Shown: piece after piece, positions 15,998-38,358 of the stretch
Position numbering within the stretch: the first letter of the stretch is position 1
Layout: each line of letters begins with the position of its first letter
Source: a virus
Taxonomy: Duplodnaviria; Caudoviricetes
Length of the DNA: 59,518 nucleotides
IMG/VR virus record: IMGVR_UViG_3300033076_000460
Coordinates: 1 to 59,518 of that record
Strand: one strand, 5' to 3'
Notes under the pieces: generated by a model
Databases searched by the model: none
The model's input: only the letters and a program-made list of their open reading frames with translations
What the model was told of the DNA's origin: nothing
Position numbers and translations under genes: made by a program

Positions 15998-16207
15998 ATG
16001 GGCCAACACAACGACACAGTCAAGCATGGAATGGACGTTCTGGCGGCAATTGCTGCCATTTCGTCTTTTCTTCAGCTACTTACCCCTATCTTCGGTTTGA
16101 TCGGGGCGGTCTGGACGCTCATGCGCATTGCAGAGATGGTGTCAGGCAAGCCTTTTGCGGTCTTGATTGGGCGTAAAAAGGACGACGCAGATGCCAAGCA
16201 AGAGTAA
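15998..16207 (+). CDS. small membrane protein (holin-like)
   Basis: Two hydrophobic segments and a charged C-terminus. Confidence 0.55.
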   Translation: MGQHNDTVKHGMDVLAAIAAISSFLQLLTPIFGLIGAVWTLMRIAEMVSGKPFAVLIGRKKDDADAKQE

Positions 16208-16682
16208 AGCGCAACACAATTTCATGGCGGCTGTGGCCAACAGCCCCGAGTTCGCCAAGAAAGCAGGAGTCCCACAGTCCGTGGGCAGTGAGTTCGTGAA
16301 AGCGGACAAACGCAAGGCGATGGGCACTCGTGCCGATCTTCAATCAGTCAACAAGCCCAAGACCAATCAGGGCTCTCAAGAACTTTTCTCACGAGGTGGT
16401 GAAATGAAAGAATCCAAAGCGATGGCCAAGAAAGAGATCTCCTTCATGGAGAAAAAGGGCGCACCCAAGTCCATGATCAAACACGAAAAAGAGGAGTACG
16501 GTATGAAAAAAGGTGGCATGAAGAAGATGGCTTCTGGTGGTATCACCACTGCCAAAATGGGCGCAGTTCGCACCGCCGCCCCCAGCCGTGACGGTATCGC
16601 CGCCAAGGGCAAGACCAAAGGCACTCAGGTCAAGATGTCCGGCTCTAAGCCTCTGGGCATGAAAAAAGGCGGCAAGTGCTGA
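16191..16682 (+). CDS. Lys-rich small protein with repeated MKKGG/MASGG
   Basis: MPSKSKAQHNFMAAVA...; four xxGG motifs. Confidence 0.75.
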   Translation: MPSKSKAQHNFMAAVANSPEFAKKAGVPQSVGSEFVKADKRKAMGTRADLQSVNKPKTNQGSQELFSRGGEMKESKAMAKKEISFMEKKGAPKSMIKHEKEEYGMKKGGMKKMASGGITTAKMGAVRTAAPSRDGIAAKGKTKGTQVKMSGSKPLGMKKGGKC

Positions 16683-16697
16683 TTTAAGGAGGCCGTC

Positions 16698-17339
16698 ATG
16701 GCAAAAAATCGTGGTGCAGCAAATCTAGCGGGCCTCGCCGCTCTTGGCGCATTGGGGTACAAGATGCTCCAAGACAAAAAGGGTTCGTCCGCCCCAGTCG
16801 AAGATCGCGGGGGGAGCGCCGTTGCTCGCCCCAGCGAAGATAGCGGCATGGGCGTGGATGAGTATGCTCGCGACAATTCCGAGTCTGCGATGTACGAAAA
16901 AGAGCCGGGCGGGGAGTCCAAAGTTGCGCCTCCCAAAGCCGCCGCTCCCAAAGCTGCTGCCAAGTCGAGATCAGTTGCTCCGACACCTCCCAACGACTCC
17001 GAAGCTGTGGTGGCACCAAAAGGCGGCTCTGGCGGCGGGCGTGGCCCGGCCTTTGGCGAACGAGAAGCCTATGAAGCCACCCGATACAAACCCCGCTACA
17101 CACCACCGGGCGTTGCCCCTAGGTCTGTTGCCGGAGCGCGATACCCCATGACTTCCCTCACTCGTGAAGACGTGTTGAAGGCAACTGAAATGAAAAAAGG
17201 TGGCGCAGTCAAGAAAATGGCTTCCGGCGGCGTGACCCGTTCTTCGGCTTCCAAGCGTGCTGACGGAATTGCTCAGAAGGGCAAGACCCGTGGGACCATG
17301 GTCATGTGCGGCGGCGGTTACGCCAAGGGCAAAAAATGA
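16698..17339 (+). CDS. low-complexity basic protein with MKKGG/MASGG
   Basis: AAGGAGG RBS; C-terminal RADGIAQKGKTRG shared with the upstream gene. Confidence 0.75.
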   Translation: MAKNRGAANLAGLAALGALGYKMLQDKKGSSAPVEDRGGSAVARPSEDSGMGVDEYARDNSESAMYEKEPGGESKVAPPKAAAPKAAAKSRSVAPTPPNDSEAVVAPKGGSGGGRGPAFGEREAYEATRYKPRYTPPGVAPRSVAGARYPMTSLTREDVLKATEMKKGGAVKKMASGGVTRSSASKRADGIAQKGKTRGTMVMCGGGYAKGKK

Positions 17340-17623
17340 TGGCCTCGCGTGGCATGGGGGCCATCAAACCGTCCAAGATGCCAAAGAAGAAGGTCATCCA
17401 ACGCAAGGATGACCCGAACGACGTTGACATGTACGCTGAAGGCGGCAAGACAAAGTCGAAGGTCAACGAGGCGGGCGTCTACACCAAGCCGGGCATGAGG
17501 AAGTCGCTGTTCGAATCCATCAAGTCCCGGGCGGTGCAAGGCACAGCCGCAGGTCAGTGGTCGGCCCGCAAGGCCCAGCTTCTGGCCAAGCAGTACAAAG
17601 CCCGTGGGGGTGGGTACAAGTGA
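17336..17623 (+). CDS. basic protein (DUF5872-like region)
   Basis: YTKPGMRK...GQWSARKAQLLAKQYKARGGGYK. Confidence 0.7.
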   Translation: MMASRGMGAIKPSKMPKKKVIQRKDDPNDVDMYAEGGKTKSKVNEAGVYTKPGMRKSLFESIKSRAVQGTAAGQWSARKAQLLAKQYKARGGGYK

Positions 17624-17853
17624 AGAATCCGCAGCAATCCCTCAAGGACTGGACTGCCCAAAAGTGGAGGACGAAAAGTGGTAAACGCTCTTCTGACACC
17701 GGTGAAAGATACCTTCCTGAAGCTGCGATCAAAGCTCTCAGCCCTTCTGAGTACGCTGCGACAACGCGTGCAAAACGTGCTGGCAAAGCTTCGGGGAAAC
17801 AATTCGTGAAGCAGCCGCCCAAGGTGGCGGCAAAGACAGCGAGGTACAGATAA
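17620..17853 (+). CDS. basic protein (DUF5872-like)
   Basis: GTG start overlapping the upstream stop; QQSLKDWTAQKWRTKSGK...GERYLP. Confidence 0.7.
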   Translation: MKNPQQSLKDWTAQKWRTKSGKRSSDTGERYLPEAAIKALSPSEYAATTRAKRAGKASGKQFVKQPPKVAAKTARYR

Positions 17854-18792
17854 ATGGCACAGACATCCGGCGCATCAGCATTCAACCTTGACCTGACTGA
17901 ACTGGTCGAGGAAGCGTTCGAGCGTGCCGGTCGTGAACTGCGCTCTGGCTACGACTTGCGAACTGCTCGTCGCAGCCTCAACATCATGTTCGCCGACTGG
18001 GCCAACCGTGGCATCAATCTGTGGACGATCGACACCGGTGTGATTGATTTAGTGCAGGGGCAGAACACGTACGCTTTACCTGTCGATACAATCGATCTTT
18101 TGGAACACGTTATTCGCACCGGTGGGAACCAAGCGGCGACTCAGGCCGACCTGACCATCACCCGCATTAGTGTTTCTACCTACGCCACGATCCCCAACAA
18201 AATCCAGCAAGCCCGGCCTATTCAGGTCTGGATTCAGCGGTACAACGGCCAGCAGTCGCCCACTGGTTTGGCAATCGACCAAACCGGCGGCATGGGGGCG
18301 GCAGATACCCAAGTGACCTTGGATTCTGTGGTTGGCTTGCCAGCCTCTGGTTTTGTGAAGATCGAAAACGAGATCATCAACTACGGCTACATCTCAGGGA
18401 ATACCCTATACAACTGCTTCCGTGGTCAGGCAAACACGACTGCGGCCAGCCATGCGGACGGCACGGCGGTGTACTGGCAGCAGCTCCCGGCTGTCACTGT
18501 CTGGCCAACCCCCGACAACGCGCAGCAGTACCAGTTCGTGTATTGGCGCTTGCGCCGCACGCAGGACGCTGGCGGCGGCGTGAACATCATGGACGTGCCA
18601 TTTCGCTTCATCCCCTGCATGGCGGCTGGCTTGGCCTACTACATCGCTGGCAAGATCCCCGAGGGGGCTGAGCGCATCATGATGCTCAAGCAGCAGTACG
18701 ACGAGGCTTGGGAGCTTGCGGCGTACGAGGACCACGAGAAAGCGGCTCTGCGCTTTGTACCCCGTCAGCAGTTCCTTGGGAATACGATCTAA
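17854..18792 (+). CDS. head-tail connector/adaptor protein
   Basis: EEAFERAG...ARRSLN...WANRGINLW...VWPTPD. Confidence 0.7.
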   Translation: MAQTSGASAFNLDLTELVEEAFERAGRELRSGYDLRTARRSLNIMFADWANRGINLWTIDTGVIDLVQGQNTYALPVDTIDLLEHVIRTGGNQAATQADLTITRISVSTYATIPNKIQQARPIQVWIQRYNGQQSPTGLAIDQTGGMGAADTQVTLDSVVGLPASGFVKIENEIINYGYISGNTLYNCFRGQANTTAASHADGTAVYWQQLPAVTVWPTPDNAQQYQFVYWRLRRTQDAGGGVNIMDVPFRFIPCMAAGLAYYIAGKIPEGAERIMMLKQQYDEAWELAAYEDHEKAALRFVPRQQFLGNTI

Positions 18793-19179
18793 ATGGGAAA
18801 CAGGTTCGCCTCCGGCAAATGGGCGATTGCTCAGTGCGACCGCTGCGATCAGCGGTTCAAGCTCAAGCAGTTGCGCCGGGAGATCATCAAGACCAAGAAC
18901 TACGAGTTGTTGGTCTGCCCTGAGTGCTGGGATCCTGATCAGCCCCAGCTTCAGTTGGGCATGTATCCGGTGGACGACCCGCAGGGCTTGCGCAACCCGC
19001 GCCCCGACCGCAGCTACGTCAGCTCTGGTTTGGACTCTGGCGGGTTTCTGTCGGGCGGGAGCAGAGACATTCAGTGGGGTTGGAACCCGGTTGGCGGGTC
19101 ACGCTCAATTGACAACGGGCTGACACCCAACTACTTGGTTTTGTCAGTGCAAATTGGTACAGTCACGGTATCCGTGTAA
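18793..19179 (+). CDS. zinc-ribbon virion-module protein
   Basis: CDRC...CPEC; DPQGLRNPRPD. Confidence 0.7.
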   Translation: MGNRFASGKWAIAQCDRCDQRFKLKQLRREIIKTKNYELLVCPECWDPDQPQLQLGMYPVDDPQGLRNPRPDRSYVSSGLDSGGFLSGGSRDIQWGWNPVGGSRSIDNGLTPNYLVLSVQIGTVTVSV

Positions 19180-19188
19180 GGAGCAAAA

Positions 19189-19359
19189 ATGGACAAGAAG
19201 CAAGTCAAGCAGATCGCTGACACCGAAGTGCGAAAGCACGAAAAGCGCATGCACGGCTCGAAGATGGCCAAGGGCGGCGTTACCACCGATTCGATGAAGA
19301 AGTACGGGCGCAACATGGCCCGTGTGATGAACCAGACCGGTTCCAAGCGCGGAGGCTGA
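19189..19359 (+). CDS. small basic protein (56 aa, below the ORF-track cutoff)
   Basis: AAGGAG RBS; MDKKQVKQIADTEVRKHEKRMHGSKMAKGGVTTDSMKKYGRNMARVMNQTGSKRGG. Confidence 0.7.
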   Translation: MDKKQVKQIADTEVRKHEKRMHGSKMAKGGVTTDSMKKYGRNMARVMNQTGSKRGG

Positions 19360-19360
19360 T

Positions 19361-19612
19361 ATGGCAAAGTACAGCATGAAAAAAGGCGGTAAGGAAGTTG
19401 GCCCTGCCTCGACCTACGCCGAACCCCACACGATGAAGGGCAAGAAGATGACTGCCGCCCCGGCTCCCAAGCCGCTGAAGGCTGATGATCTGAACCCCTC
19501 CGCTGCCAACATCTCCAAGGGCAACTATCCGCCCGTCAAGACTTCTGGCATCAAGATTCGTGGCACTGGGGCCGCGACCAAAGGCGTGATGGCCCGTGGC
19601 CCGATGGCGTGA
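19361..19612 (+). CDS. small basic protein
   Basis: GGAGG RBS; MKKGG; C-terminal RGTGAATKG. Confidence 0.7.
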   Translation: MAKYSMKKGGKEVGPASTYAEPHTMKGKKMTAAPAPKPLKADDLNPSAANISKGNYPPVKTSGIKIRGTGAATKGVMARGPMA

Positions 19613-19619
19613 GGTTTGA

Positions 19620-20330
19620 ATGACCTACGATGAACTTGTTGCGGCGATCCAGTCGTACACCGAGAACCAATTCCCAACGACCTACTTGGCCGATGGGTCT
19701 GGCGTTTCTCCGACCACCCAGATCAACACGTTCATCAAGCAAGCGGAACAACGAATCTTCAACACGATTCAGTTCCCTTCTCTTCGCAAGAATGTGACCG
19801 GGACGACGACAGCGAATAACAAGTACCTGTCTTGCCCCGATGACTTCTTGGCGGTGTACTCGCTGGCTGTGATTGATGCGGCAGGGGCGTACGAGTTTTT
19901 GCTGAACAAGGATGTGAACTTCATCCGTCAGGCATACCCGACCCCCACTGACACGGCCATTCCGAAGTATTACGCGCTCTTTGGCCCCACGACCACGAGC
20001 GGTGCAACGCCAGTCATCACGAACGAACTGTCGTTCATTCTTGGCCCCACCCCCGATGCTGCGTACAGCGTTGAACTGCACTACTTCTACTATCCAGTTT
20101 CGATTGTGGATTCAGTCGATGGTCACACATGGCTGGGTGACAACTTTGATTCGGTGCTGCTCTACGGCTCTTTGGTCGAGGCGTACACCTTCATGAAGGG
20201 TGAAGCTGACTTGATGACCCTGTACGATGGCAAGTACAAAGAAGCACTTGCTCTGGCCAAGCGTCTGGGCGACGGCATGGAACGTCAGGACGCGTATCGT
20301 TCTGGCCAATACAGACAGGCGGTCACATGA
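19620..20330 (+). CDS. phage adaptor/tail tubular A-like protein
   Basis: FIKQAEQRI...PKYYA...GPTPD...LLYGSLVEAY. Confidence 0.7.
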   Translation: MTYDELVAAIQSYTENQFPTTYLADGSGVSPTTQINTFIKQAEQRIFNTIQFPSLRKNVTGTTTANNKYLSCPDDFLAVYSLAVIDAAGAYEFLLNKDVNFIRQAYPTPTDTAIPKYYALFGPTTTSGATPVITNELSFILGPTPDAAYSVELHYFYYPVSIVDSVDGHTWLGDNFDSVLLYGSLVEAYTFMKGEADLMTLYDGKYKEALALAKRLGDGMERQDAYRSGQYRQAVT

Positions 20331-20746
20331 GCATCATGCAAGGAGCCACCACAAGCTTCAAGCTTGAGCTGCTTGAGGGGGTTCACAACTTTCTCACCGA
20401 CACGTTTCAGATTGCCCTGTACACGGGCAACGCAAACTTGGGCCCGTCCACTACGGTTTACAGCACCGCGAATGAGGTGACTGGAACCGGGTACACGGCG
20501 GGCGGCAACACCTTGACTGTCATCCCCCCGGCCTCTTCTGGCACGGTGGCGTATGTCTCTTTCCAAAATACCTCATGGGCCTCCGCGTCGTTCACCGCAA
20601 GAGCGGCTTTGATCTACAACGCAACCCAAGGTAACAAGTCTGTGGCCGTGCTGGATTTCGGTTCTGACAAAACCGCGTCCAACAGTCCATTCACGATCAC
20701 CTTCCCAGTTGATGACGCCTCCAACGCCATCGTGAGGGTTGCTTAA
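20327..20746 (+). CDS. tail-module structural protein
   Basis: SFKLELL...GTGYTAGG...AVLDFGSDK. Confidence 0.7.
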   Translation: MSIMQGATTSFKLELLEGVHNFLTDTFQIALYTGNANLGPSTTVYSTANEVTGTGYTAGGNTLTVIPPASSGTVAYVSFQNTSWASASFTARAALIYNATQGNKSVAVLDFGSDKTASNSPFTITFPVDDASNAIVRVA

Positions 20747-20831
20747 GGGGTATTCGTATGTTGGGCAACAACGTAGAATCGATTCAAACTTCAACACATG
20801 CGCTTAGTCGCATCTCTTAACAGGAGTCATC

Positions 20832-21437: not shown

Positions 21438-21447
21438 GGAGTCTTAA

Positions 21448-23193: not shown

Positions 23194-23205
23194 TTGGAGG
23201 TCGCA

Positions 23206-23385
23206 ATGGAATCGCATGTTTTTTCGTACACCACAAAATATGGGCAATTCACTGACGCCATCGTTTTGGAGGAAGGCCACGGCCTGACCGCAGAAGAGAT
23301 CGATGCAATGAAACTTGATCGCCTCAATAGGTGGTTGGCCCATCTTGACGGAGTCCACGCACAACAGGCGCAGGAGCCCCAGTAA
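23206..23385 (+). CDS. small protein, possible fibre chaperone
   Basis: GGAGG RBS; sits between the fibre and adhesin genes. Confidence 0.55.
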   Translation: MESHVFSYTTKYGQFTDAIVLEEGHGLTAEEIDAMKLDRLNRWLAHLDGVHAQQAQEPQ

Positions 23386-26072
23386 TGGCGACACGGTACT
23401 GGGTCGGCGGAACCGGCAACTGGATTACCGGCGGCACCGCCAACTGGTCAACCACCTCTGGCGGCGCGGGGGGCGCGTCGGTTCCTACATCCGCTGACGA
23501 TGTAGTGTTTGACGCAAATAGTGATGGCGGGAACCCTAGTTTTACAGTTTCTGTCGCGACATCTGGATCTAGTTGCAGAAACTGGACCAACACCGGTGTC
23601 GATGTGCCCATGACTTTTACATTTGGTAGCGGCTTGACTACCCTCAATGTCTACGGCTCTGTCACCATGCACGCGACTAGAACCACGTTGGGTGCGTCAC
23701 TCAATTGGGTTTTTACTGGTACTGGCGGTACTATTACCACCAACGGCGTTAGTTTCGCGGGGGGACGAGTAAACTTTGACAGCAGCACTGGTAGCTGGAC
23801 GCTTGGTTCCGCTATGAGTACGACCGGCGAATTTAACCTCGTATCGGGGAGTCTTAATACAGCCGGATTTGCTATCTCCTCGACCATAGTTACTTGTTCT
23901 GGCTCGGCTGTCAGATCTCTTACTCTTGGCGCTACAGCTTGGGCGATTACCGGCTCGGCGGGTTGGAGTTTTACGTCTACTGGGTTGACGTTCAATGCTG
24001 GAACTTCTACGCTGACTTTTTCATCCAGTGGGGTTACATTTAGCCACGCTAATCTCGCGTACTACAATGTGAGTTTTACCGGCGTTTATGGCACGTATGA
24101 TTTCACCGCGGGAGCGTTTTCTGCTAATAACTTGACATTCGGGGCGTTTACGAGTATTGGAAGCGTCGTTCTTGGCGGTGATATTTCACTTTCGGGTACG
24201 CTGTCTTGCGCTCCAGCTACGTCGAATGATAGAAGGCGGTTCATTCGCTCAAACACCATAGGTGCGACCCGAACCATTACTTGCGCTTCGAATGTCACTT
24301 CGTTTGGCATGGTTGATTTGCGGGATATTTCGATCAGCGCCCCAACCACGGTTACTGGGACATCGCTTGGTGATTGTGGCGGCAACAGTGGCGTCACGTT
24401 CACAGCACCTAAAACCGTTTACTGGAACCTCGTGGCGGGTGGGACGTGGACTTCCACTCCGTGGGCTTTAACGTCCGGCGGCGCGGTCTCACTGGCTAAT
24501 TTTCCGTTGCCACAAGACACATTGATTTTTAACAACACAGGACTGAATGCTGGTAGCACGGTTTCCCTCAACACATATGTCAACTTACCAAACTTCGATG
24601 CTAGTGCGTTGACCAACGCCTGCACCCTGACGAACAACATCACTACTGTCGGCCTTGCAAATTTTTGCGGCAGTTTGTCCGTCGGTAACTTTACTATGGG
24701 CGGCACGGCGTCCACCATCTACACATTTACAAGTCGCAATCCGTCGCTTTCTTCGGTCAATACGAACTCGAAGACTTTCACCAGTCAAGTCTACGTTTCA
24801 GCCCCCAGTGGCGGCATTAAGATCACCGGAACAAACGCCACATGGACAAACACCAACGGGTTGATCCACACCGCTGGAACAATTGATCTATCTGCGGGGT
24901 TCGATATTTCAGCCGTCAAATACACGTCAACCTACGTCTCCGGCGTGGCTCGTGGGTTTGTGTTTGGTGGGTCACTTAATCTATCCACCAGTGGGACTGC
25001 CGTTTTCAACGTGGCTGATGGCACTGGGTTCGTTGTGTCTGGTACCAGCGGGTATGTAAAGCTGACCTTCAGCGGCGCTACAGCTACCACCGTTGTTGCC
25101 AATTCTCCGTCTGGCCCAACCTCGGCGTTTCCATTCTGGTTTTCTGCGGGAACTTATAACCTCACCTTCCTCAACACCGCGAATGAAGTGGCGAACAGAG
25201 TTTCATTTGCTGGGTTTTCCGGAAAGTGGAACAACACGTTTCCAGCAGGAGGGGTAGCTTTGTTTGGCAGTATTGAGTTCTCTAGCGCGATGACGTTTAC
25301 AACCGGGTACGTTTACTCCTTGTCTGTCGGCGCTGGGGATTCTGGCTCCTACACCATTACTACAAACGGCAAAACCATACCCTTTGCAATGCAAGTTGTT
25401 GGCGCTGGCGGCACGCTTGCTCTTGCGGATGCCTACACGGCAACCGCAGGTTTTGCGGTATCGGTGGGAAATTTCAATTTGAATGGCTACACACTGACCA
25501 CGCCAAGCTTCCTTGTATCTAGCTCCATGCCTAAAAATATCACCTTTAACGGGGGAACAATTTCTGTCTCTGGGGATTTCACAACCGCTAGTGCGGCCAA
25601 TTTGACCACTACCGCTGGAACTGGGCCCGGGTATATTTCAATGACTTCGCCCAGCGCAAAAAATTTTAGCGGGGGTGGGCTTGACTATAGTGCCGCGACG
25701 CTTCAGCAAAGTGGTGCTGGGCCGTTGACAATCAGTGGTAGCAATACGTTTTATGACATTGCAAATACCACGCAGCCTGTGACCGTGCAGTTCGCTGCTG
25801 GGTCAACCAACACCTTTTCCAATTTCTCCCTGTCTGGGACGCTTGGGAATCAGGTCACAATCGCTTCCAACACTTCGGCCACGCACACTCTGTCTAAACT
25901 TACTGGTACAGTGAACGTGTCCTATTGCACAATCAGCTATTCTGTTGCCACCGGCGGCGCGACATGGAATTCGCTCCTGACAAACGGCAACATTGACAAC
26001 GGAAACAACACTGGGTGGAACTTTGTAGCGGTAGCGCCTTCCGCCGGTGGTAAATTTTTCACGGTCTTCTAA
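23385..26072 (+). CDS. large beta-solenoid adhesin-like/receptor-binding protein
   Basis: 895 aa, T/S/G/F-rich; RYWVGGTGNW...ADDVVFD module present twice; more T-ending codons than neighbours. Confidence 0.7.
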   Translation: MATRYWVGGTGNWITGGTANWSTTSGGAGGASVPTSADDVVFDANSDGGNPSFTVSVATSGSSCRNWTNTGVDVPMTFTFGSGLTTLNVYGSVTMHATRTTLGASLNWVFTGTGGTITTNGVSFAGGRVNFDSSTGSWTLGSAMSTTGEFNLVSGSLNTAGFAISSTIVTCSGSAVRSLTLGATAWAITGSAGWSFTSTGLTFNAGTSTLTFSSSGVTFSHANLAYYNVSFTGVYGTYDFTAGAFSANNLTFGAFTSIGSVVLGGDISLSGTLSCAPATSNDRRRFIRSNTIGATRTITCASNVTSFGMVDLRDISISAPTTVTGTSLGDCGGNSGVTFTAPKTVYWNLVAGGTWTSTPWALTSGGAVSLANFPLPQDTLIFNNTGLNAGSTVSLNTYVNLPNFDASALTNACTLTNNITTVGLANFCGSLSVGNFTMGGTASTIYTFTSRNPSLSSVNTNSKTFTSQVYVSAPSGGIKITGTNATWTNTNGLIHTAGTIDLSAGFDISAVKYTSTYVSGVARGFVFGGSLNLSTSGTAVFNVADGTGFVVSGTSGYVKLTFSGATATTVVANSPSGPTSAFPFWFSAGTYNLTFLNTANEVANRVSFAGFSGKWNNTFPAGGVALFGSIEFSSAMTFTTGYVYSLSVGAGDSGSYTITTNGKTIPFAMQVVGAGGTLALADAYTATAGFAVSVGNFNLNGYTLTTPSFLVSSSMPKNITFNGGTISVSGDFTTASAANLTTTAGTGPGYISMTSPSAKNFSGGGLDYSAATLQQSGAGPLTISGSNTFYDIANTTQPVTVQFAAGSTNTFSNFSLSGTLGNQVTIASNTSATHTLSKLTGTVNVSYCTISYSVATGGATWNSLLTNGNIDNGNNTGWNFVAVAPSAGGKFFTVF

Positions 26073-28005: not shown

Positions 28006-28788
28006 ATGCCCATCCTCTCTTCTGTCGCATCAGCCTCTGCCCGAGGGTACGGGTTCAACGGAAACATTTTGGTTCCGGGGAACAGCGGCGTTTTGACCTC
28101 TGGTACGTCCTACACCCTGCCGCTGACTTCTGGTACGACAGTGAACATTTTGGTCATCGCAGCTGGCGGCGGTGGTGGCGGCGGTTCTGGCAGGAACGCA
28201 AACTATGACGGCTTCAACACCGGTGGCGGTGGCGGTGGAGCAGGTGGAAACGCATACGTTCTAAGTGTCCCAGTTGTGCCCGGCCAGACCATCAGCTATT
28301 CAATCGGCAGTGGCGGCAGCGCTGGAAGCTACAGGGATGGCGTTTACACAAGCGGTAGCTCTGGCGGCACTGGGAGCGTGACTACTGCCACGGTTGATGG
28401 GAATCTGGTTGCAAGGGCAACCGGAGGTAGCGGCGGCACGGTTTCCCCAAGCGGTAGTGCTGGCGGCGCTGGCTCCTACACGGTTGGCACTCAACTATCA
28501 ACGCCCACCGCTGGCGGCAGCGCACCGAGCGGGAGCTATTCTGGCGGCGTGGGCGCAAAAGGGTACACCATCACCACCACGGTGGGCACTGTGCTTGGAT
28601 CTTTGCTTTCCTACGGATCAAACGGGACAACCTATCCGCAGGGGAGCAGCAGCTCAAACACCCCGGGCACTGGGTACGGTGCGGGCGGCTCTGGCGGCAG
28701 TGCTTTGCAGTCCGACCAATACAACACGGCCCCGCTGTCTTCAAACGCTGGCCTTGCTGGCGCAGTGTTCATCTGGTGGGGCTATTAA
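28006..28788 (+). CDS. glycine-rich tail-associated protein
   Basis: VIAAGGGGGGG...GGGGGAGG glycine-rich domain. Confidence 0.7.
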   Translation: MPILSSVASASARGYGFNGNILVPGNSGVLTSGTSYTLPLTSGTTVNILVIAAGGGGGGGSGRNANYDGFNTGGGGGGAGGNAYVLSVPVVPGQTISYSIGSGGSAGSYRDGVYTSGSSGGTGSVTTATVDGNLVARATGGSGGTVSPSGSAGGAGSYTVGTQLSTPTAGGSAPSGSYSGGVGAKGYTITTTVGTVLGSLLSYGSNGTTYPQGSSSSNTPGTGYGAGGSGGSALQSDQYNTAPLSSNAGLAGAVFIWWGY

Positions 28789-28791: not shown

Positions 28792-29508
28792 GTGGACCCC
28801 TTCACCCTCCTTGCCATCGCCAAAGGCGCTGTCGCTGCCATCAAGCAGGGATGTGAGCTTTACAACGAATTCAAGGGGCATCTGGTCGAGGCCAAAGAGG
28901 CCATTGATGAGGCCCGTGGCATCGTCACTGAGGTCACTGGGTTCTGGGGCAACTTCAAGAAGTGGTGGTTTGGAGAGCCCGAGCCCCAGCCAACCGCAGA
29001 GCAACCCAAGCCAAAGGCCAAGTCGCGCAAGAAGTTTCAGGAGTTTGACGAGATTGAGGTTCGCCGGGACATTGCCGACAACCTCGTCAAGTTCTTCAAA
29101 GCCTTGGAAGCACTCAAGAACCACATCGCCGAGGAGGAGGAGAAGTCCCGAAACGTGTACGACCCCGACCAAAACCTGATGGAAGCCGCGCTGCACCGAG
29201 TTCTGGCTCTTGATGAGATGGAGAAGTTGCAGTACGAGATCAGGCAGGTGATGGTGTATCAGACCCCCGGGATGGGAGACCTGTACACCCGAGTAGTCAA
29301 GATGGTTGGTGTGATTTCCGAGGAGCAAGAGCTGGCTCGGATTCAGAAGGTCAAAGCGGAGCGGGACGCAAGATGGCGACGAAGAAGGGCGCAGGACAAG
29401 GCAACGGACGTTCTTTTGGCGGCAGTGGGAATCGTCCTGCTGGCGGGGTATCTCGGGGGCGCATGGTGGATTCTGGTGAAGGATCGGATGGATCGCTGGG
29501 GATTTTGA
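28792..29508 (+). CDS. coiled-coil membrane-anchored protein
   Basis: MDPFTLLAIA...; C-terminal transmembrane helix. Confidence 0.7.
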   Translation: MDPFTLLAIAKGAVAAIKQGCELYNEFKGHLVEAKEAIDEARGIVTEVTGFWGNFKKWWFGEPEPQPTAEQPKPKAKSRKKFQEFDEIEVRRDIADNLVKFFKALEALKNHIAEEEEKSRNVYDPDQNLMEAALHRVLALDEMEKLQYEIRQVMVYQTPGMGDLYTRVVKMVGVISEEQELARIQKVKAERDARWRRRRAQDKATDVLLAAVGIVLLAGYLGGAWWILVKDRMDRWGF

Positions 29509-29663
29509 TTGCCATGTTGTCGATGGCGGTCGTGATGTTTTTGCTGGTCTTGACAGCCTTCATGTACATCGACATCCTCGGAGCCAAGGCAGAAGTAAGG
29601 GAGCAGCTTGTCAAGCTTGAGAAGTTGCGTCGGGAAGTGGAAAAACTTGCAAAGGAAAAGTAA
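29463..29663 (+). CDS. small membrane protein with coiled coil
   Basis: TM segment ILIAMLSMAVVMFLLVLTAF followed by a charged helix; start uncertain. Confidence 0.55.
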   Translation: MVDSGEGSDGSLGILIAMLSMAVVMFLLVLTAFMYIDILGAKAEVREQLVKLEKLRREVEKLAKEK

Positions 29664-30166
29664 TGCTCAGTCTCATTTCAACCCTAGGTGGCCTCCTGAT
29701 CTCAGGTTTGCCCAAACTCCTTGAGTTCTTCCAAGACAAGGCGGACAAGAAGCACGAGCTGGCGCTGGCCGAGATGCAGACCATCCGCGAGAAGGAGCTG
29801 GCCGTCATGGGCTACGCCGCCCAAGCCAAGGTCGAAGAGATCCGCGCCGACCAGATCGCCATGCAGACCGATGCCCAGATGACCCAAGCGGCTCTGGCGC
29901 ACGATGAGAAGGTTCTGGAGAAGTCCAGCAAATGGGTGGTCAACTACGTGGGCACTGTGCGCCCGACTGTCACCTACATGTTCGTGCTGGAGTTGATTGC
30001 CATCAACCTGTACATGACCTACTACCTGTTTGCCCACCCAAGTCTGATTCAGACGGTGGACGATGTGATCCGCTATTCCGAAATTATTTTCAGTGGTGAT
30101 GAGATGGCAATGCTCGGGGGGATTATTGGATTTTGGTTTGGAAGCCGTAACTGGAACAAGAAGTGA
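29663..30166 (+). CDS. holin-like membrane protein
   Basis: VRPTVTY and IIGFWFGSR motifs of 3TM/GTA-type holin-like proteins; directly before the lysozyme. Confidence 0.65.
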   Translation: MLSLISTLGGLLISGLPKLLEFFQDKADKKHELALAEMQTIREKELAVMGYAAQAKVEEIRADQIAMQTDAQMTQAALAHDEKVLEKSSKWVVNYVGTVRPTVTYMFVLELIAINLYMTYYLFAHPSLIQTVDDVIRYSEIIFSGDEMAMLGGIIGFWFGSRNWNKK

Positions 30167-30687
30167 AGACATCCGACAAAGGCATCCATCTGATGCACCT
30201 GTTTGAGGGCTACAGGGACAAACCCTATCAATGCTCTGCTCACATGTGGACGATTGGGTGGGGCCATGTCATCTACCATGATCAACTCAAACTGCCGATG
30301 GTCAGGAAGGAAGGCTATGAAGGACTCATCCGTTCGGAATACCCGCTTCGCCCGGAGCATAACCGTGTCTGGAGCCGCCCAGAATTGGTCGGTATATTCA
30401 AAGATGACCTCGTCAATTTTGAACGTGGTGTTCTTCGACTTGCTCCCAATCTGTCTGGCCGTCAAGGCGCTTTCGACGCTTGCGTGGCTTTCAGCTTTAA
30501 CGTAGGTCTGGGGAGCTTCCAAAGATCCACGATTCGTCAGAAAATCGGGCGCAAGGATTGGGACGGAGCCGCCGAGGCATTTATGGTTTGGACGAAGGCC
30601 GGTGGCAAGGTTCTCAAAGGTTTGGTTCGCCGCCGAGAGGCGGAACGTGCGCTCTTCCTGAGCGACAAAAACGAAGAAGAGAATTGA
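30163..30687 (+). CDS. endolysin, GH24 lysozyme
   Basis: FEG...PYQCSAHMWTIGWGH, FSFNVG, GLVRRREAE. Confidence 0.92.
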   Translation: MKTSDKGIHLMHLFEGYRDKPYQCSAHMWTIGWGHVIYHDQLKLPMVRKEGYEGLIRSEYPLRPEHNRVWSRPELVGIFKDDLVNFERGVLRLAPNLSGRQGAFDACVAFSFNVGLGSFQRSTIRQKIGRKDWDGAAEAFMVWTKAGGKVLKGLVRRREAERALFLSDKNEEEN

Positions 30688-32722: not shown

Positions 32723-32725
32723 TCT

Positions 32726-34102
32726 ATGACTTTCTTTGTCACATCCACTTACGAACTCAACCGAGTTGTTGCGCCTCGCCTTCCGGCGGCTCCCGTTCAG
32801 TACGAGCAACGGTATCAAGATCAGTTCGCTGACATCCTGCGCTTGTACTTCAACCGACTCGACAACATACTGGGGCAACTCATGGCAACGATGGAAACCA
32901 TTCCTGTATCAATCGGCGGCACGAATGTCGATGCGTTTGGACGACTGCGTGTCAGTCAGCCGTACACACTGTTTGATAGCCAACAGCAATACGGTGCTGA
33001 CACTCAGTTCGACACATCCACATCTGGCACTGGCACGACGACCTACAACGCTGATCAGGCATCTTTGTACATGACGGTGGGCTCAGGCGGTGCGGGGTCT
33101 GTGGTGCGACAAACGTATCGTTGTTTCCCGTACCAGCCGGGCAAGGGGCTTCTGGTGCTTGCCACATTCTGCATGGATGGCAGTTCAAACGTTGGTCTGA
33201 CCCAACGGGTTGGTTACTTTGACACCAAGAATGGCGTGTACTTCCAAAGAGTGGATGGCACGTACTCATTCACCCTACGCTCTTATGTCACTGGCACGGT
33301 GGACAACAGCCGAAATGTGACGCAAGCCAATTGGAATGGCGACAAGCTAGATGGCACTGGCCCTTCTGGCTTCACTCTTGATCCAAGCAAGTCACAAATT
33401 TTGTGGATGGATTTTGAGTGGCTTGGAGTTGGATCGGTGCGCTGTGGCTTCATCATTGACGGCCAGTACATCGTCTGCCACACATTCAATAACGCCAACG
33501 AGATCACCACGACCTACATGACGCGGGCCACCTTGCCCGTGCGCTACGAGATCACATCGACCACAGGGATCGCCGCCACCATGAAGCAGATTTGCTCATC
33601 GGTTGTGTCGGAAGGTGGGTACGAGCAGTACTCGGTGGGGAACGTAGCTCGACGCACTACGAAATTGTCGAACATCCAATTGACGTTTAAACCCGTCGTC
33701 TCGATTCGCTTGGCATCCACATCGCCCAACGCTGTCATTGTCCCGGCAAGGATTCAAGTGATTGCGATCACGAGCCAGAACTACGAGATTGCCCTGTTTA
33801 AAAACCCAACTCTTACCGGTGCGTCGTGGGGCGCAGTGCCGACGGATGCCAACGTGGAGCAAGACACAAGCGCCACTGCAATGACTGGCGGGACAATCAT
33901 TCAGACTGATTACCTCAACGCCACGGGCTCTGGCGGCTCTCAACCTTTGGTTGATCCTGCTGGCTACAACTGGGCGTTCCAGCCCGGTGTTTCTTTGGCC
34001 GGAGTGTCGGACATCATCACCGTCGGCATCAGGACAATCGACTCTGCAACCCCCGCTGGTGACTGTTATGGGTCATTGTCTTTCTGGGACTTGACAGCTT
34101 AA
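32726..34102 (+). CDS. tail-associated protein
   Basis: LRLYFNRLD N-terminus; DAFGRLRVS; WNGDKLDG; WLGVGSVRCGF. Confidence 0.7.
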   Translation: MTFFVTSTYELNRVVAPRLPAAPVQYEQRYQDQFADILRLYFNRLDNILGQLMATMETIPVSIGGTNVDAFGRLRVSQPYTLFDSQQQYGADTQFDTSTSGTGTTTYNADQASLYMTVGSGGAGSVVRQTYRCFPYQPGKGLLVLATFCMDGSSNVGLTQRVGYFDTKNGVYFQRVDGTYSFTLRSYVTGTVDNSRNVTQANWNGDKLDGTGPSGFTLDPSKSQILWMDFEWLGVGSVRCGFIIDGQYIVCHTFNNANEITTTYMTRATLPVRYEITSTTGIAATMKQICSSVVSEGGYEQYSVGNVARRTTKLSNIQLTFKPVVSIRLASTSPNAVIVPARIQVIAITSQNYEIALFKNPTLTGASWGAVPTDANVEQDTSATAMTGGTIIQTDYLNATGSGGSQPLVDPAGYNWAFQPGVSLAGVSDIITVGIRTIDSATPAGDCYGSLSFWDLTA

Positions 34103-34124
34103 AATTGCTCAAAAGGATCAACTC

Positions 34125-35438
34125 ATGAGCCTCAAAGCCGCCGCACAACATCTCGCCAGTCAAGGACGTGGGCCAGATACCACCCTTGTCCACATGTCCC
34201 CCCGCGAGGTGAGGAGCCTCCAAGAGCTTGCGATGGCTCACGGCGGGTCTCTCAGTATTAACCCTAGTACCGGTCTCCCCGAGGCTGGTTTCCTCGACAA
34301 CCTGCTGCCCACGATCATCGGCGGCGCAGCTGTCGCCCTCACCGGCGGCGCGGTCACCCCTTTGATGGCCGGGCTTGGCGTTGGCGGTTTGGAGGCCTTG
34401 CGCTCAGGTGATGTGGGCAAAGGCTTGATGGCAGGTCTGGGGGCCTACGGCGGCGCTGGCCTGATGGGTGGTTTGGTTGGCGCTGGCGGTAGCGCTGTCG
34501 GAGAAGCGGCGGGTGACATAGCCGGACGGGTCGGCAGTGGGGAGCATGGCTTAGCAGCCAACCAAGCAGTCGCGGCTCAGAGTCCCTTCAGTCTTGCTGG
34601 CGAAGGTGTCAAATCCGTTTTCAACAACCCCAAAGGCATCAGCGCAGGGCTTGAGTCCATTGGGCGCAATATGGATACTGGCTTTGGAAGCAGCCCCCTC
34701 ATGAAACTGGGAACCACTGCCGCCGCTGCCGCCGCTCCTGCGTTGTTCTCCGAACCAGAGTTCGAGACCCCACAAACCAAGAACGAAGCGGCTCCTGTTC
34801 GCTCGTACTCGGCCAACCCCACAATGCCCACGCCGCAACCCAACGTGCCGCGCCCCATCGACTACCGGAACTTTGTGCCGGGCGTCACTCCCTCTCCCCA
34901 GTCGCAGAACTTCGGAGTCGAGCAGCGGTACTTCAACCCCATGTTCTACGCAAACGGTGGTCCCGTCGAGCAAATGTCCCAAGCCAACTCTGTCGGGGCC
35001 AACACTGGCTACCCGCAGGCCGACATCCGTGGGCACGCCTACGCCACGCCTTGGCAAACCCCCGTCTCCCAGAACATGGTGACCGGCGTTGCTGACACTG
35101 GGGTTAACCCTATCACTGGTGAAATGTCGTTCGCTGACGGCGGCGTGTCCCACCTTGGCGATTACTCGGACGGTGGCCGACTGTTGCGCGGGCCGGGCGA
35201 CGGCGTGTCCGACGACATCCCTGCTACGATCGGCAACAAACAGCCAGCCCGTCTGGCCGATGGTGAGTTTGTGGTACCGGCCCGGATCGTTTCCGAGCTG
35301 GGCAACGGCTCGACTGAATCTGGAGCACGCAAACTGTACGCCATGATGGACCGCATTCAAGCTGGCCGCAAGAAGACGATGGGCCGTGGCAAAGAGTTTG
35401 CCAAGGACAGCAAGGCCGAGCGCCACTTGCCCGCCTGA
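34125..35438 (+). CDS. internal virion/ejection protein
   Basis: GRGPDTTLVH..INPSTGLPEA N-terminus; Gly/Ala hydrophobic segment; C-terminal GPGDGVSDDIPA...LADGEFVVPA. Confidence 0.7.
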   Translation: MSLKAAAQHLASQGRGPDTTLVHMSPREVRSLQELAMAHGGSLSINPSTGLPEAGFLDNLLPTIIGGAAVALTGGAVTPLMAGLGVGGLEALRSGDVGKGLMAGLGAYGGAGLMGGLVGAGGSAVGEAAGDIAGRVGSGEHGLAANQAVAAQSPFSLAGEGVKSVFNNPKGISAGLESIGRNMDTGFGSSPLMKLGTTAAAAAAPALFSEPEFETPQTKNEAAPVRSYSANPTMPTPQPNVPRPIDYRNFVPGVTPSPQSQNFGVEQRYFNPMFYANGGPVEQMSQANSVGANTGYPQADIRGHAYATPWQTPVSQNMVTGVADTGVNPITGEMSFADGGVSHLGDYSDGGRLLRGPGDGVSDDIPATIGNKQPARLADGEFVVPARIVSELGNGSTESGARKLYAMMDRIQAGRKKTMGRGKEFAKDSKAERHLPA

Positions 35439-35869
35439 TGGATATCAGTCTGGTTCCGGTTGGGCAGGTGGCGCGGGCAATTCCTGTGCTGCTGCCTTAC
35501 CTGAAGGTGTCCGAAGAGTGGGCGCATGGGCGGGCAACGGCTGATGACCTGATCCGGTTTGTGCTGAACGGGCAGATGTTTTTGTGGGTTGTGTTTGAGG
35601 ATGACAAGGTCTACGGCCATGTGATCACGGAGATCAAGCAGTACCCGCAGTGCAAGATGTTGGTGATCCAGTATTGCGCGATGGATACTGGAACACTGGA
35701 AAAAATCAACCCGAAGATGCAAGACATTGCAGAGCGTTTTGCCAAAGACGCAGGTTGTGCAGGGATTGAATTTGTGGGTCGCCCCGGCTGGAAGCAGACC
35801 GCCCGTGAATACGGGTACGCCGTGCAAAGCGTAACGTATCAGAAATTTTTTGAAGAGGTCGCATCATGA
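35438..35869 (+). CDS. acetyltransferase-like virion assembly protein
   Basis: FAKDAGCAGIEFVGRPGW; position between tail tube and ejection genes, as for P22 gp14 and T7 gp13. Confidence 0.6.
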   Translation: MDISLVPVGQVARAIPVLLPYLKVSEEWAHGRATADDLIRFVLNGQMFLWVVFEDDKVYGHVITEIKQYPQCKMLVIQYCAMDTGTLEKINPKMQDIAERFAKDAGCAGIEFVGRPGWKQTAREYGYAVQSVTYQKFFEEVAS

Positions 35870-38358
35870 GCAGTGGTGGGCAACAAAAAGCAAGCGAACA
35901 GACAACAATTACGGAACTTCCGGCGTGGGCGAAACCGTACGCGCAAGACGTGCTGTCCAAGGGCCAAGCTCTGACGGACGTCAAACAGAATCCGTACCAA
36001 ACCTACGGCGCACCTCGCGTTGCTGGTTTCTCCCCGATGGAGGAGCAGTCCTTCTCCGGTGCGGCCAACCTTGCGCCGTCGCAAGCAGGTCTGGCCGGAC
36101 AGGGCGTGGCGCTGGGTGCGAGTCTTGGGGCCATGGACACTGGGCAGTTTGGCCCTCGTCAGGCCCAGCGGTACATGAACCCGTACTTGGAGTCGGCACT
36201 GGCTCCCCAGATGGAGTTGATGCGTCGTCAGCAGGGCGCTCAGGCTCAGCAGATGGCGGGTCAGGCCACACTGGCCGGTGCTTTTGGCGGCTCTCGATAC
36301 GGTCTGGGGCAGGTTCAGCAGAACCTTGCCAACCAGCTTGCTCAGCAGAACTTGGTTGGTCAGGGCTACAACACCGCGTACCAGAACGCGATGGCCCAGT
36401 TCAACGCCGATCAGGCCCGTCGTCTCCAAGGCTTGCAGACCTCCTTGCAGGGCGCACAGACCCTTGGTGGCCTCGGCCAACAGCAGTTCGGCCAACAGGC
36501 TCAAGCGATTGGCATCCAGAACCAGCTTGGCGGGCAGCAACGTGGTTTGGAACAGCAGGGCCTTGACGTCGCCTATCAAGACTTCCTGAACCAGCAGAAC
36601 TACCCCTACCGCCAACTTGGCTTCATGTCCGACCTGTTGCGCGGCACTCCCACGGGTCAGTCCACCACGACCAACATGTACCAAACGCCCGGCAGCATCA
36701 TGGGCCAACTGGGCGGCATTGGCATGGGCGCTTATGGCCTGAGCAAGGCTGGCCTGTTCAAAGAGGGTGGTGAAGTTGACAGCTATGCCGAGGGTGGCGA
36801 AACTGATCTTGACATGCTGAGCGATGATCAGCTGAAGGTTTCGTACCAAAATGCTCTGGCGCGGGGCGACATCCTGACGGCCCAAGCCATTCAAACACGC
36901 CTTGCTGAAAACACGGCTCTGCGCAATGCTCAGCAAGCTTCGCTGTCGCGTGGCCTCGGTTACGCATTTGATCAGCTTCCCGCTGAGCAACAGAACAACG
37001 TGATCTCTGCCGCAGGTGGTGGCATCGTTGCGTTTGCTGGTGGTGGGAACAAGGGCGAATACTACCAAGACCCGCTTGGGACGCCTTCGGCGGCGGAACC
37101 CGATGACTCTGGTTACAGCATCTTCAAACAGGACATTCGTGAAGGCGAAGAGTATTCGCCGAACCTGTTGGGCATGTTGTTTGGGTACAACCGCTTGCCC
37201 CCCAAAGAGAAGAAAGCGGCAGAAACTAAAAGCGCCGCTCCTTCCGGCACTCCGTACGATCCTCTGACGGCCACGCGCCGTGAGGATTTTTCTGACGCGC
37301 CCCCCGCAAAAGCACCGGCAAAAGCACCCGCAACAGCGTCGGGTGCCGCGGCTCCCACACCGGCAAAATCCATCACGGAAGCCGTCAAGCGGACCAGCAT
37401 GCCTGATGCCATCAAGCAGATGCAAGAAGTCTTGAACGATCCTGAATCCGCAAAGCTCATTCAAGAGAACGCGGATGAGATCAAACGCTACGCCGCACGC
37501 GCAGAAGACGTGAAGAAGCAGCGCGGTGCAAACGCTCTGGCAGAGTTTGGATTCCGCATGGCAGCAGAAGCGTCCAAGCCGGGCTCCACCTTCTTTGGTA
37601 GCGCGGCAGCGGCCAGCCCGACCATCACGGAGTCGCTCAAGAAGTCCGAAGAAGTCGAACAGCGCATGGCTGACAACGCCATGAAGATGCGCCAGTTGCA
37701 GAACCAGTCGGTCATTGCGATGCGCAAGGGTGATCGTCAGTCGGCGATCCAAGGCGCAGCACAACTTCGTATGCTTGAGCAGTCGCAGGAACAACTGGCG
37801 CTCCAACGAGATCAGTTGGCTGAAACCATCCGCGCCCACAAGGCGACGGAATCCATCCATCGCGAACAGCAGAACAAGCCCAGTGAAACTGAGCGTATCT
37901 TGGCAAAAGTTGAGAACATCCGCAGTGGCAAGGAGTCGTATGCCGGTATGACTGGTGAAGAGGGTGTAGCTGCCTACACTGCGGCGATGGGCGATGTCGG
38001 CGCGGCTCGCTACGGTGTGCGTTACTCGGGACAAAACAAAGACATCGAGCGCTACACGAACATCCTCAAGGACGACCAAGAGTACAAAATGCTCAAGGTT
38101 CAGCGTTCACAGCTTGCCGGGCAAGCAGAACCCAACGACAAGCAACGTGCCAAGCTTGCGCGGATTGACAACCGCATTGCGGAGATTGAGGCTCGTGCGC
38201 GTAGCAGCGCAGGTATGGGTCAGGGCGCTGGCCCGGTGCAGGGAGCACCGCAAGTTCCTCCGCAAGCGATTGCCGCGTTGCGTGCAGATCCCCGCTTGCG
38301 CGATCAATTTGATGCAAAATATGGACGAGGTTCGGCAGATCGATATCTAGGAGACTGA
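35866..38358 (+). CDS. DNA ejection (internal virion) protein
   Basis: Q/G/A-rich; YMNPY and AGAFGGSR motifs. Confidence 0.7.
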   Translation: MSSGGQQKASEQTTITELPAWAKPYAQDVLSKGQALTDVKQNPYQTYGAPRVAGFSPMEEQSFSGAANLAPSQAGLAGQGVALGASLGAMDTGQFGPRQAQRYMNPYLESALAPQMELMRRQQGAQAQQMAGQATLAGAFGGSRYGLGQVQQNLANQLAQQNLVGQGYNTAYQNAMAQFNADQARRLQGLQTSLQGAQTLGGLGQQQFGQQAQAIGIQNQLGGQQRGLEQQGLDVAYQDFLNQQNYPYRQLGFMSDLLRGTPTGQSTTTNMYQTPGSIMGQLGGIGMGAYGLSKAGLFKEGGEVDSYAEGGETDLDMLSDDQLKVSYQNALARGDILTAQAIQTRLAENTALRNAQQASLSRGLGYAFDQLPAEQQNNVISAAGGGIVAFAGGGNKGEYYQDPLGTPSAAEPDDSGYSIFKQDIREGEEYSPNLLGMLFGYNRLPPKEKKAAETKSAAPSGTPYDPLTATRREDFSDAPPAKAPAKAPATASGAAAPTPAKSITEAVKRTSMPDAIKQMQEVLNDPESAKLIQENADEIKRYAARAEDVKKQRGANALAEFGFRMAAEASKPGSTFFGSAAAASPTITESLKKSEEVEQRMADNAMKMRQLQNQSVIAMRKGDRQSAIQGAAQLRMLEQSQEQLALQRDQLAETIRAHKATESIHREQQNKPSETERILAKVENIRSGKESYAGMTGEEGVAAYTAAMGDVGAARYGVRYSGQNKDIERYTNILKDDQEYKMLKVQRSQLAGQAEPNDKQRAKLARIDNRIAEIEARARSSAGMGQGAGPVQGAPQVPPQAIAALRADPRLRDQFDAKYGRGSADRYLGD

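Follow-up and report, generated by a model that had tools for sequence, protein, structure and literature searches.

A Conserved Hydrophobic-Ala/Lys-x-Gly-Gly Motif at Module Edges of Putative Ejection Proteins and Small Lysine-Rich Proteins of a Probable Podovirus and in Phage Tape-Measure Proteins

Results and Discussion

A short diglycine motif was investigated in the viral record IMGVR_UViG_3300033076_000460 (Duplodnaviria; Caudoviricetes), whose 59,518 bp, complete or nearly so, are called the window hereafter; open reading frames (ORFs) are named by their first position. The results supported the motif as a real, conserved signal of proteins that probably leave the virion, and it was found to mark the edges of small modules. 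Judged from the sequences, the motif is carried in the window by the probable ejection proteins of ORFs 34125 and 35866 and by four small Lys-rich proteins whose genes lie around those of the adaptors; in siphophages and myophages, it lies on both sides of a GE[FVY]V block near the C-termini of lambda-type tape-measure proteins (TMPs); and in T5-type TMPs it takes the form R-A-x-G-G and heads the pb2C peptide (x, any residue; phi, hydrophobic residue). We tentatively favor a role as a hinge-and-anchor, or docking, element at the module edges of DNA-exit-path proteins that probably leave the virion together with the DNA.

Enrichment of the Motif in the Window

A preliminary description of the window had listed 17 pentapeptides of the form [MFY]-x-x-G-G in seven ORFs, and all of them were found in the ORFs named. 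The enrichment was tested on 67 ORFs with 2000 within-protein residue shuffles, the start Met being excluded. The loose pattern [MFY]xxGG was seen 28 times, compared with 13.7 ± 3.6 expected, and the tight pattern [MFY][AKS]xGG was seen 17 times, compared with 3.2 ± 1.8 expected; for either pattern, 0 of the 2000 composition-keeping shuffles reached the observed count, and the enrichment suspected earlier was thus borne out. Sixteen of the 17 tight matches fell in the seven named ORFs, and the remaining 60 ORFs matched the expectation for the loose pattern (11 versus 11.1). Moreover, M, F, or Y stood at position −3 of 17 of the 39 GG dipeptides in the seven ORFs, compared with 11 of 144 elsewhere. 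In agreement with the preliminary description, there were no matches in the portal protein, and there were none in this register in the capsid protein. The close pairs of copies noted there were real as well, with copies often 7–11 residues apart; in the 34125 family, a spacing of 11 (phi-A-x-GG ... YSDGG) accounted for 302 of 1006 successive pairs.

The pattern had been defined post hoc, after the data had been seen by the reader, and therefore the conservation in homologues was weighted as the stronger test. In Planktothrix phage Pag-Yong1, an independent relative, the tight pattern occurred 6 times compared with 1.3 expected (reached in 4 of 2000 shuffles), in syntenic proteins, and the loose pattern was not enriched (8 versus 5.5).

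Conservation and Anatomy of the Motif

The homologue sets were taken from 80 related IMG/VR loci around ORF 17854 and 80 around ORF 34125, and distinct homologues were counted. Between 11 and 13 of the 17 listed sites were retained in diverged homologues. MAKGG of ORF 19189 was kept in 53/53 homologues, YAEGG of ORF 17336 in 64/65, YSDGG and FADGG of ORF 34125 in 53/54 and 49/54, MASGG and FSRGG of ORF 16191 in 49/53 and 45/53, and YAEGG of ORF 35866 in 32/38. MASGG of ORF 16698 was retained in 34/39 despite a mean column identity of 0.24 in that family. The expected conservation accordingly held for most sites but not for three, namely MKKGG of ORF 19361 (7/58), MCGGG of ORF 16698 (1/39), and MKKGG at residue 105 of ORF 16191 (14/53). 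ORF 19361 (19361–19612, plus strand) encodes 83 residues with MKKGG at 19376–19390, and this copy is probably not a functional instance because it was kept in just 7 of 58 homologues; the claim of a signal common to all seven proteins was not sustained.

The pentapeptide was the core of a longer motif, [M/F/Y/L]-[A/K]-x-G-G-x-[T/V/S]. In the small proteins, T or V occupied the second place past GG in 298 of 461 contexts, and S, L, or V was found two places beyond GG in the 34125 family. All 340 proteins of this family with at least 250 residues from global collections contained at least one [MFYL]AxGG; one to six copies were carried by 18, 114, 122, 63, 16, and 7 proteins, respectively, two or three being the commonest. 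The residue preceding A-x-G-G was M in 22%, F in 15%, and Y in 13% of cases, compared with backgrounds of 4%, 2%, and 3%. In addition, [MFYL]..GG occurred 1770 times in the 340 proteins, compared with 613 times for [MFYL].GG. The Gly codons of the motif were GGT or GGC and varied synonymously; therefore, the constraint acts on the protein, and an RNA-level signal resembling Shine-Dalgarno GGAGG was ruled out.

Small Lys-Rich Proteins

The five small motif ORFs (16191, 16698, 17336, 19189, and 19361) contain 10–19% Lys, and their genes, all on the plus strand, are placed among the head-tail connector genes, from the capsid gene to the adaptor genes. ORF 16191 (16191–16682) encodes a Lys-rich protein of 163 residues, in which the motif stands at the boundaries between the N-terminal domain, which matches phrog_16759, a middle segment, a module of 40 residues, and a short Cys-ending tail (FSRGG 16386–16400, MKKGG 16503–16517, MASGG 16527–16541, and the C-terminal MKKGG 16659–16673). 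In its family, the C-terminal copy lies 6–7 residues before the end, with GG retained in 47 of 53 homologues. A module of about 40–45 residues is common to ORF 16191, ORF 16698, and Pag-Yong1 UMO75986. The motif ORFs had been described as otherwise unrelated, which does not apply to ORFs 16191 and 16698, since they have this C-terminal module of about 45 residues in common. ORF 16698 (16698–17339, 213 residues) has a hydrophobic N-terminus, a low-complexity middle, and the C-terminal module with the motifs (MKKGG 17190–17204, MASGG 17217–17231, and the unconserved MCGGG 17304–17318). ORF 19189 (19189–19359) encodes 56 residues, also Lys-rich, with a central MAKGG (19264–19278), and is flanked by two SU10-adaptor-like genes.

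Module exchange was observed in the family of ORF 17336 (17336–17623), whose 95 residues comprise a conserved leader of 32 residues, YAEGG (17432–17446), and a C-terminal domain matching phrog_17747. In its relatives, the same leader and [Y]A-x-GG precede four unrelated C-terminal domains; among the 47 of 66 sequences that could be classified by pattern, these types were represented 34, 9, 3, and 1 times. Some homologues have a whole inserted domain with a second phi-xxGG at its far end. Each locus contained the leader a single time (73 hits in 73 loci). Together, the leader and the exchangeable domains suggest a hypervariable set of small proteins, which may be delivered with the DNA.

Two further features of these genes were observed. 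Members of the ORF 16191 family terminate in ...GG-K-x(0-2)-Cys (16674–16679 in the window), with Cys in most of the 47 aligned sequences, and gp43 of pelagiphage HTVC023P is likewise Cys-terminated; this residue could make a disulfide or metal contact in the particle. ORF 17557 (phrog_14910) adjoins ORF 17336 in the region 17336–17853, and the long overlap listed for the two ORFs probably reflects a wrongly assigned start codon, because conservation in ORF 17557 sets in near 17620, where ORF 17336 has its stop codon.

Phage Type and Ejection Proteins

The capsid protein (13947–14858) showed 72% identity to its counterpart in Pag-Yong1 and Synechococcus phage MinM2 and 64–67% identity to those of the pelagiphages HTVC023P and HTVC027P. 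ORFs 17854 and 19620 matched the SU10 adaptor family of Pfam. Taken together with the ejection-protein matches given below, these similarities indicate that the virus is a podovirus of the HTVC023P/Pag-Yong1 type and that ORFs 34125, 35866, and 38360 are probable ejection proteins.

ORF 34125 (34125–35438, plus strand) encodes a putative ejection protein of 437 residues with a Gly-zipper hydrophobic stretch and the motifs MAHGG (34233–34247), YANGG (34947–34961), FADGG (35130–35144), and YSDGG (35163–35177). In two phages, DSL-LC04 and Caulobacter phage GB2A, the homologous proteins carry a tape-measure annotation. The last 104 residues (35124–35438, plus strand) form a domain with the elements phi-A-x-GG, LG-x-YSDGG, RLL-GPGDG-SD-IPA, ADGEFVVPA, and LYAMMDRIQ in this order, which is almost invariant, with the rest of the protein ranging from 191 to 1241 residues. 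A profile search with this domain gave 12,492 cluster representatives at E ≤ 1e-3. Among the best 120 matches in each of two large protein searches, only unnamed or "hypothetical" proteins were found, and no Pfam family covers the domain. Searches of PDB sequences with ORFs 34125 and 35866 gave nothing relevant. The MAHGG copy in the N-terminal segment was less well kept (phi-xxGG in 24/54). Residues 20–60 (window 34125–34330), ...TLVHMSPREVRSLQELAMAHGGSLSINPSTGLPEAGF, represent a very widespread segment, for which 1766 of 1858 candidates matched at E ≤ 0.001.

ORF 35866 (35866–38358, plus strand) encodes 830 residues, the N-terminal 300 of which match phrog_4287 "DNA ejection protein"; directly past this domain stand FKEGG (36757–36771), YAEGG (36784–36798), and FAGGG (37033–37047). 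In the 35866 family, 2–4 motif copies were found right behind the N-terminal domain, and some loci have shorter ORFs that end there. A compact phi-AxGG...GE-phi-phi..P module in ORF 35866 (FAGGGNKGEYYQDP) was present in only 2 of 39 family members and was hence attributed to chance. Apart from phrog_4287, no informative family was obtained for the seven motif proteins in Pfam, NCBIfam, and PHROGs, and the ESM Atlas search yielded viral hypothetical clusters only.

ORF 38360 (38360–45496, plus strand; 2378 residues) encodes a giant ejection or polyvalent protein with LPD39 and DarB-like PHROG matches, and it contains no phi-[AKS]xGG. One of its segments shows homology to gp48, the ejection protein of PhiM1 (8vb2, E = 2.6e-4), and to the "internal virion protein" 9sfn (E = 1.2e-6). 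Its zincin-like segment (residues 1307–1370) has HEAIH at residue 1307 (42278–42292) and HEFVAEA ~55 residues (about 165 nt) further on, and both are conserved in the solved ejection proteins 8vb2 and 9sfn.

The Motif in Tape-Measure Proteins

The preliminary description had named FATGG and YATGG beside a GEFV segment in lambda gpH. This was correct, with FATGG (733), HRGEFVF, and YATGG (778) all present in the segment ...KFHFATGGFTGTGGKYEPAGIVHRGEFVFTKEATSRIGVGNLYRLMRGYATGGYVG... A tblastn search with gpH residues 681–853 matched 1,044 phage records, mostly over residues ~745–785 alone. Six further TMP C-termini were compared, from T1-like Jk06, phi80, a Klebsiella Webervirus, a P2-like Mannheimia myophage, Vibrio H2, and Xanthomonas Kintu, and GGK-x-x-P-x-G-x-VH-x-GE[FVY]V was kept in all six. 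When lambda was included, F-x-x-GG stood upstream of GE[FVY]V in 6/7 and YA-x-GG downstream in 6/7. Pfam covers only residues 54–256 and 627–701 of gpH, so that the GE-phi-V block lies outside. No paper naming the motif or this block was found in a literature search that covered articles without their supplements, which may hold proteomic tables. The motif and its bordering GE-phi-V module are very widespread yet uncatalogued. A universal tape-measure feature was rejected, as the TMPs of HK97, L5, and Mu are without the motif.

The C-terminus of ORF 34125 (FADGG / YSDGG ... ADGEFVVPARIVSELG ... LYAMM) has the phi-AxGG / GE-phi-V / helix pattern of lambda-type TMPs, and FATGG ... HRGEFVF ... 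YATGG of gpH is paralleled by FADGG / YSDGG ... ADGEFVV ... LYAMM. The two differ in the invariant H-x-G-E of the lambda type, whose His is lacking in ORF 34125, and the support for homology is weak. ORF 34125 also differs from gpH in its invariant GPGDG-SD-IPA, which it has in common with the TMP of mycobacteriophage Douge. In a search of the 104-residue profile against all PDB sequences, this protein (gp16, PDB 8zdo) was the only relevant match, with two internal copies at E = 0.05. Its Y-A-x-GG-F-L-S-G-x-G-T-G-R-SDS-M-L-A-R-V-S-N-GEF-I aligns with YSDGG-RLL-GPGDG-SD-IPA...GEFV; however, the E-value is only 0.05, and the copies are internal, not C-terminal as in ORF 34125. The Douge copies are reported as unresolved in its structure (PMC13033339). 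An S24/LexA-like Ser-Lys dyad in GPGDG-SD was also considered and rejected, since the Lys position is unconserved (ARQL in homologue L106) and the Ser is absent from lambda.

In T5, the cut of pb2 has been mapped after R1127 by LC-ESI-TOF mass spectrometry (PMC10038345). The cut bond in the sequence is ...SFVPR|AEGGMMYPGVSYQMGEHGTEVVTPM..., and the residues after R1127 are AEGG. T5 pb2 has 1219 residues with two A-x-G-G and five GG dipeptides, and the chance of a random bond landing there is ~2 in 1218, which is a post-hoc figure. R-A-x-G-G followed by GE-x-G-x-E-phi-phi-TP was present in 4/4 T5-type TMPs, T5 included. The likeness of pb2 and pb2C to ORF 34125 comprises A-x-G-G-phi, G-E-x-G-x-E-phi-phi-x-P ~10 residues on, the location downstream of a hydrophobic stretch, and the nature of pb2 as a protein expelled ahead of the DNA. 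However, Ala is preceded by an invariant Arg (4/4) and not by M/F/Y, the motif is in single copy, and pb2 is a siphophage tail protein. In addition, pb2C is reported to have a metallopeptidase motif and muralytic activity (cited in PMC10038345), and the His of the metallopeptidase motif is absent from ORF 34125, which reads A-D-G-E. The T5-type TMP of Vibrio phage D360 (L178) has GENGKE, i.e., Asn for the His of T5 GEHGTE, which raises the question whether this motif binds metal in every member.

In the Ur-lambda 2025 paper, ~14 kDa is described as removed from a Gly-rich stretch close to the gpH C-terminus, the cut site and the enzyme are stated as unknown, and gpH residues ~690–817 are given as unresolved in the structures (PMC12617516). 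A cut at FATGG was computed to yield 80.1 + 12.2 kDa, compared with the published ~78 + ~14 kDa, and the published masses of gpH* fit residue ~710 slightly better than 733–737. A cutting linked to gpK/gpI was rejected for lambda, as HK97 has K and I homologues yet a motif-free TMP.

Through the motif, a putative podoviral ejection protein is connected with the C-terminal part of TMPs, which is the first to exit, and this provides a concrete sequence link between two functionally analogous DNA-conduit systems. The processed C-terminal region of TMPs is already known; its occurrence in a putative podoviral ejection protein and its spread over small basic proteins appear to be new.

Possible Function of the Motif

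The hinge-and-anchor element that we tentatively favor would begin with a single bulky hydrophobic side chain, continue with a Gly-Gly turn, and end in a short beta-type segment; it would be disordered alone and fold upon contact. It might allow the flanking modules to pivot outward or to attach along partner chains of the portal, core, or adaptor channel, comparable to the loops of T7 gp6.7 and gp7.3. As an exposed boundary, the element would be a site of module exchange by recombination and, in T5 at least, the place where the C-terminal module is cut off. The T7 proteins are reported to be small, Lys-rich, and largely unstructured, to bridge portal, core, adaptor, and nozzle via short loops, and to be ejected (PMC11784390). 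The small Lys-rich podoviral proteins of the window resemble them by description and may act alike. A hinge or docking role would fit because the residues past GG are conserved, YSDGG lies inside a conserved domain, the ORF 16191 family has a copy at the extreme C-terminus, and T7 provides a precedent; the C-terminal copy, with 6–7 residues behind it, is more suggestive of a docking tail than of a site of cleavage.

Several results weigh against this assignment. The small motif proteins are placed in the virion by gene position only, and a role like that of T7 gp6.7 and gp7.3 is favored only by their gene position and composition. No binding partner of the motif was identified. The motif-free TMPs of HK97, L5, and Mu imply that tape-measure function in general does not require it. 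When the C-terminus of ORF 34125 was compared with the seven TMP modules by hhalign, an E-value of 0.0061 was obtained with a probability of only 6%, and hmmsearch against lambda gpH alone was not significant (E = 0.5). The AlphaFold2 model of the 104-residue domain, built on a 12-row alignment, was of low confidence, with a mean predicted local distance difference test score of 50.8 and a predicted template-modelling score of 0.30; residues 1–36, the motif region, were below 50, and the only helices were 53–59 and 65–85. The model is compatible at most with a segment that needs a partner to fold. Furthermore, the exact T5 cut at A-x-G-G and the lambda cut in the Gly-rich region holding FATGG favor a processing site, and the two readings remain close.

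A proteolytic processing site, from which the downstream modules of ejection, small basic, and tape-measure proteins would be released, is a possible although doubtful alternative. The cut could separate the hydrophobic residue or Arg from Ala, which is the T5 position, or could follow GG, the position proposed in the preliminary description, and could be made by a host enzyme, an unrecognized phage enzyme, or the module itself. T5 and lambda are given as the only TMPs shown to be cleaved (PMC12617516), and both bear the motif, while HK97, L5, and Mu do not. The cut of pb2 directly before AEGG, the R-A-x-G-G of all four T5-type TMPs, and the approximate agreement of a lambda FATGG cut (80 + 12 kDa) with the reported masses point in the same direction, although the best-fit gpH* mass is nearer to residue 710 than to 733–737. 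The arrangement of ORF 16191, with the motif at every module boundary, and the motifs beside inserted domains are polyprotein-like. Nevertheless, the residue before Ala varies by lineage (R in the T5 type, F/Y in the lambda type, M/F/Y/L here), which does not fit a single protease specificity; the residues beyond GG are conserved too; YSDGG lies within an almost invariant 100-residue domain; and a cut at the conserved copy 6–7 residues from the C-terminus would free a mere stub. Proteomic data for this phage group were not found in the literature, supplements not being covered. The diglycine maturation suggested earlier was partly supported, in that the only residue-mapped TMP cut, at T5 pb2 R1127, sits at A-x-G-G; the proposed cutting after GG inside the head was not supported, the T5 cut lying before Ala and occurring in the tail.

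No peptidase family was found among 40 ORFs in Pfam, 20 in PHROGs, and 10 in NCBIfam, the remaining small ORFs, the terminase, portal, and capsid protein, and the two fibre ORFs lying outside the Pfam peptidase scan. The result was in agreement with the preliminary description, in which no prohead protease had been recognized, and it counts against a processing site. ORFs 11340, 11765, 12766, and 13275 in the portal/scaffold neighborhood likewise matched no protease family. The only candidate with protease-like features was the HExxH...E segment of ORF 38360, which is also conserved in two solved ejection proteins; it would favor processing but is unproven, and Pfam gave sub-threshold matches only. 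As the matching protease it was unsupported, since PhiM1 has an ejection protein with this domain but no motif clusters. A term search of the PhiM1 paper gave no mention of a metalloprotease.

The diglycine sites of adenovirus and African swine fever virus (ASFV) follow the consensus phi-x-G-G and are cut after GG. Adenain and ASFV pS273R resemble the present case in acting on a short conserved Gly-Gly signal in core or internal proteins; however, the hydrophobic residue is at −3 here (phi-x-x-G-G) and at −2 in those viruses. For a clan CE cysteine protease, the 40 Pfam-scanned ORFs of the window gave no peptidase family. The analogy drawn in the preliminary description therefore fails, because the register differs and no such protease was found.

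In a broader form of the processing reading, the bond before A-x-G-G (or Gly-Gly) would be a general release point, and the DNA-conduit proteins of all three tail types would shed C-terminal modules during assembly or ejection, which we consider unlikely. It would span TMPs, podoviral ejection proteins, and small basic proteins with exchangeable "cargo", and the enzyme would be an unrecognized protease or the conserved module itself. If so, lambda gpH would be converted to gpH* by a cut at F733/A734 (or after G737), and the present phage would inject a set of processed basic peptides.

It is quite improbable that the motif, or a leader ending in it, is a cargo-sorting signal that would bring small effector-like proteins into the procapsid in a T4-like manner. 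Such a signal would account for the conserved leader and motif of the ORF 17336 family, an arrangement with exchangeable "cargo" at the C-terminus that resembles the T4 capsid-targeting sequence, for the Lys-rich small proteins encoded in the head/connector module, and for the same motif in the ejection proteins. However, the leader occurs once per locus (73/73) and is not common to several proteins, and a T4-like targeting leader fails for this reason. In most proteins, the motif has an internal or C-terminal location, TMPs bear it though they are not capsid cargo, and nothing in this analysis indicates packaging or docking into a procapsid.

A motif without its own function, arising from Gly/Lys-rich composition, an RNA-level signal, or the descent of one duplicated module, is very improbable. 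Some copies are indeed paralogous, the C-terminal modules of ORFs 16191 and 16698 being homologous; three listed sites are unconserved; and five loose matches stand in ORF 23385, a Gly-rich fibre ORF. On the other hand, composition-keeping shuffles never matched the observed count, conservation in the motif columns far exceeds that of the surrounding positions (MASGG 34/39 in the ORF 16698 family, against 0.24), the Gly codons are synonymously variable and not Shine-Dalgarno-like, and the motif occurs in unrelated contexts and in the TMPs of distant phages.

Other Observations in the Window

The tail-fibre-like ORF 23385 (23385–26072) contains five [FY]xxGG compared with 1.6 expected (p = 0.019), which the preliminary description had not listed, with A, K, or S second in one only. 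ORF 28006 (28006–28788) matches Pfam Gly_rich_2. Both ORFs are Gly/Thr/Ser-rich and fibre-like, and their [FY]xxGG is probably a composition effect and not the same motif.

The SU10-adaptor-like genes 17854–18792 and 19620–20330 are paralogous to each other, and between them lie a Cys-rich ORF of 128 residues (18793–19179) and the small ORFs 19189 and 19361. In the portal–scaffold interval, ORF 11340 (11340–11753, 137 residues; phrog_3188) gave a weak match to GroES (NCBIfam, E = 2e-4, falling far short of the family cut-off), and its counterparts in Pag-Yong1 and HTVC023P are annotated as GroES. A lysis cassette is located amid the tail and ejection genes (28792–30687), with membrane proteins and a phage lysozyme at 30163–30687 (Pfam, E = 3.7e-31).

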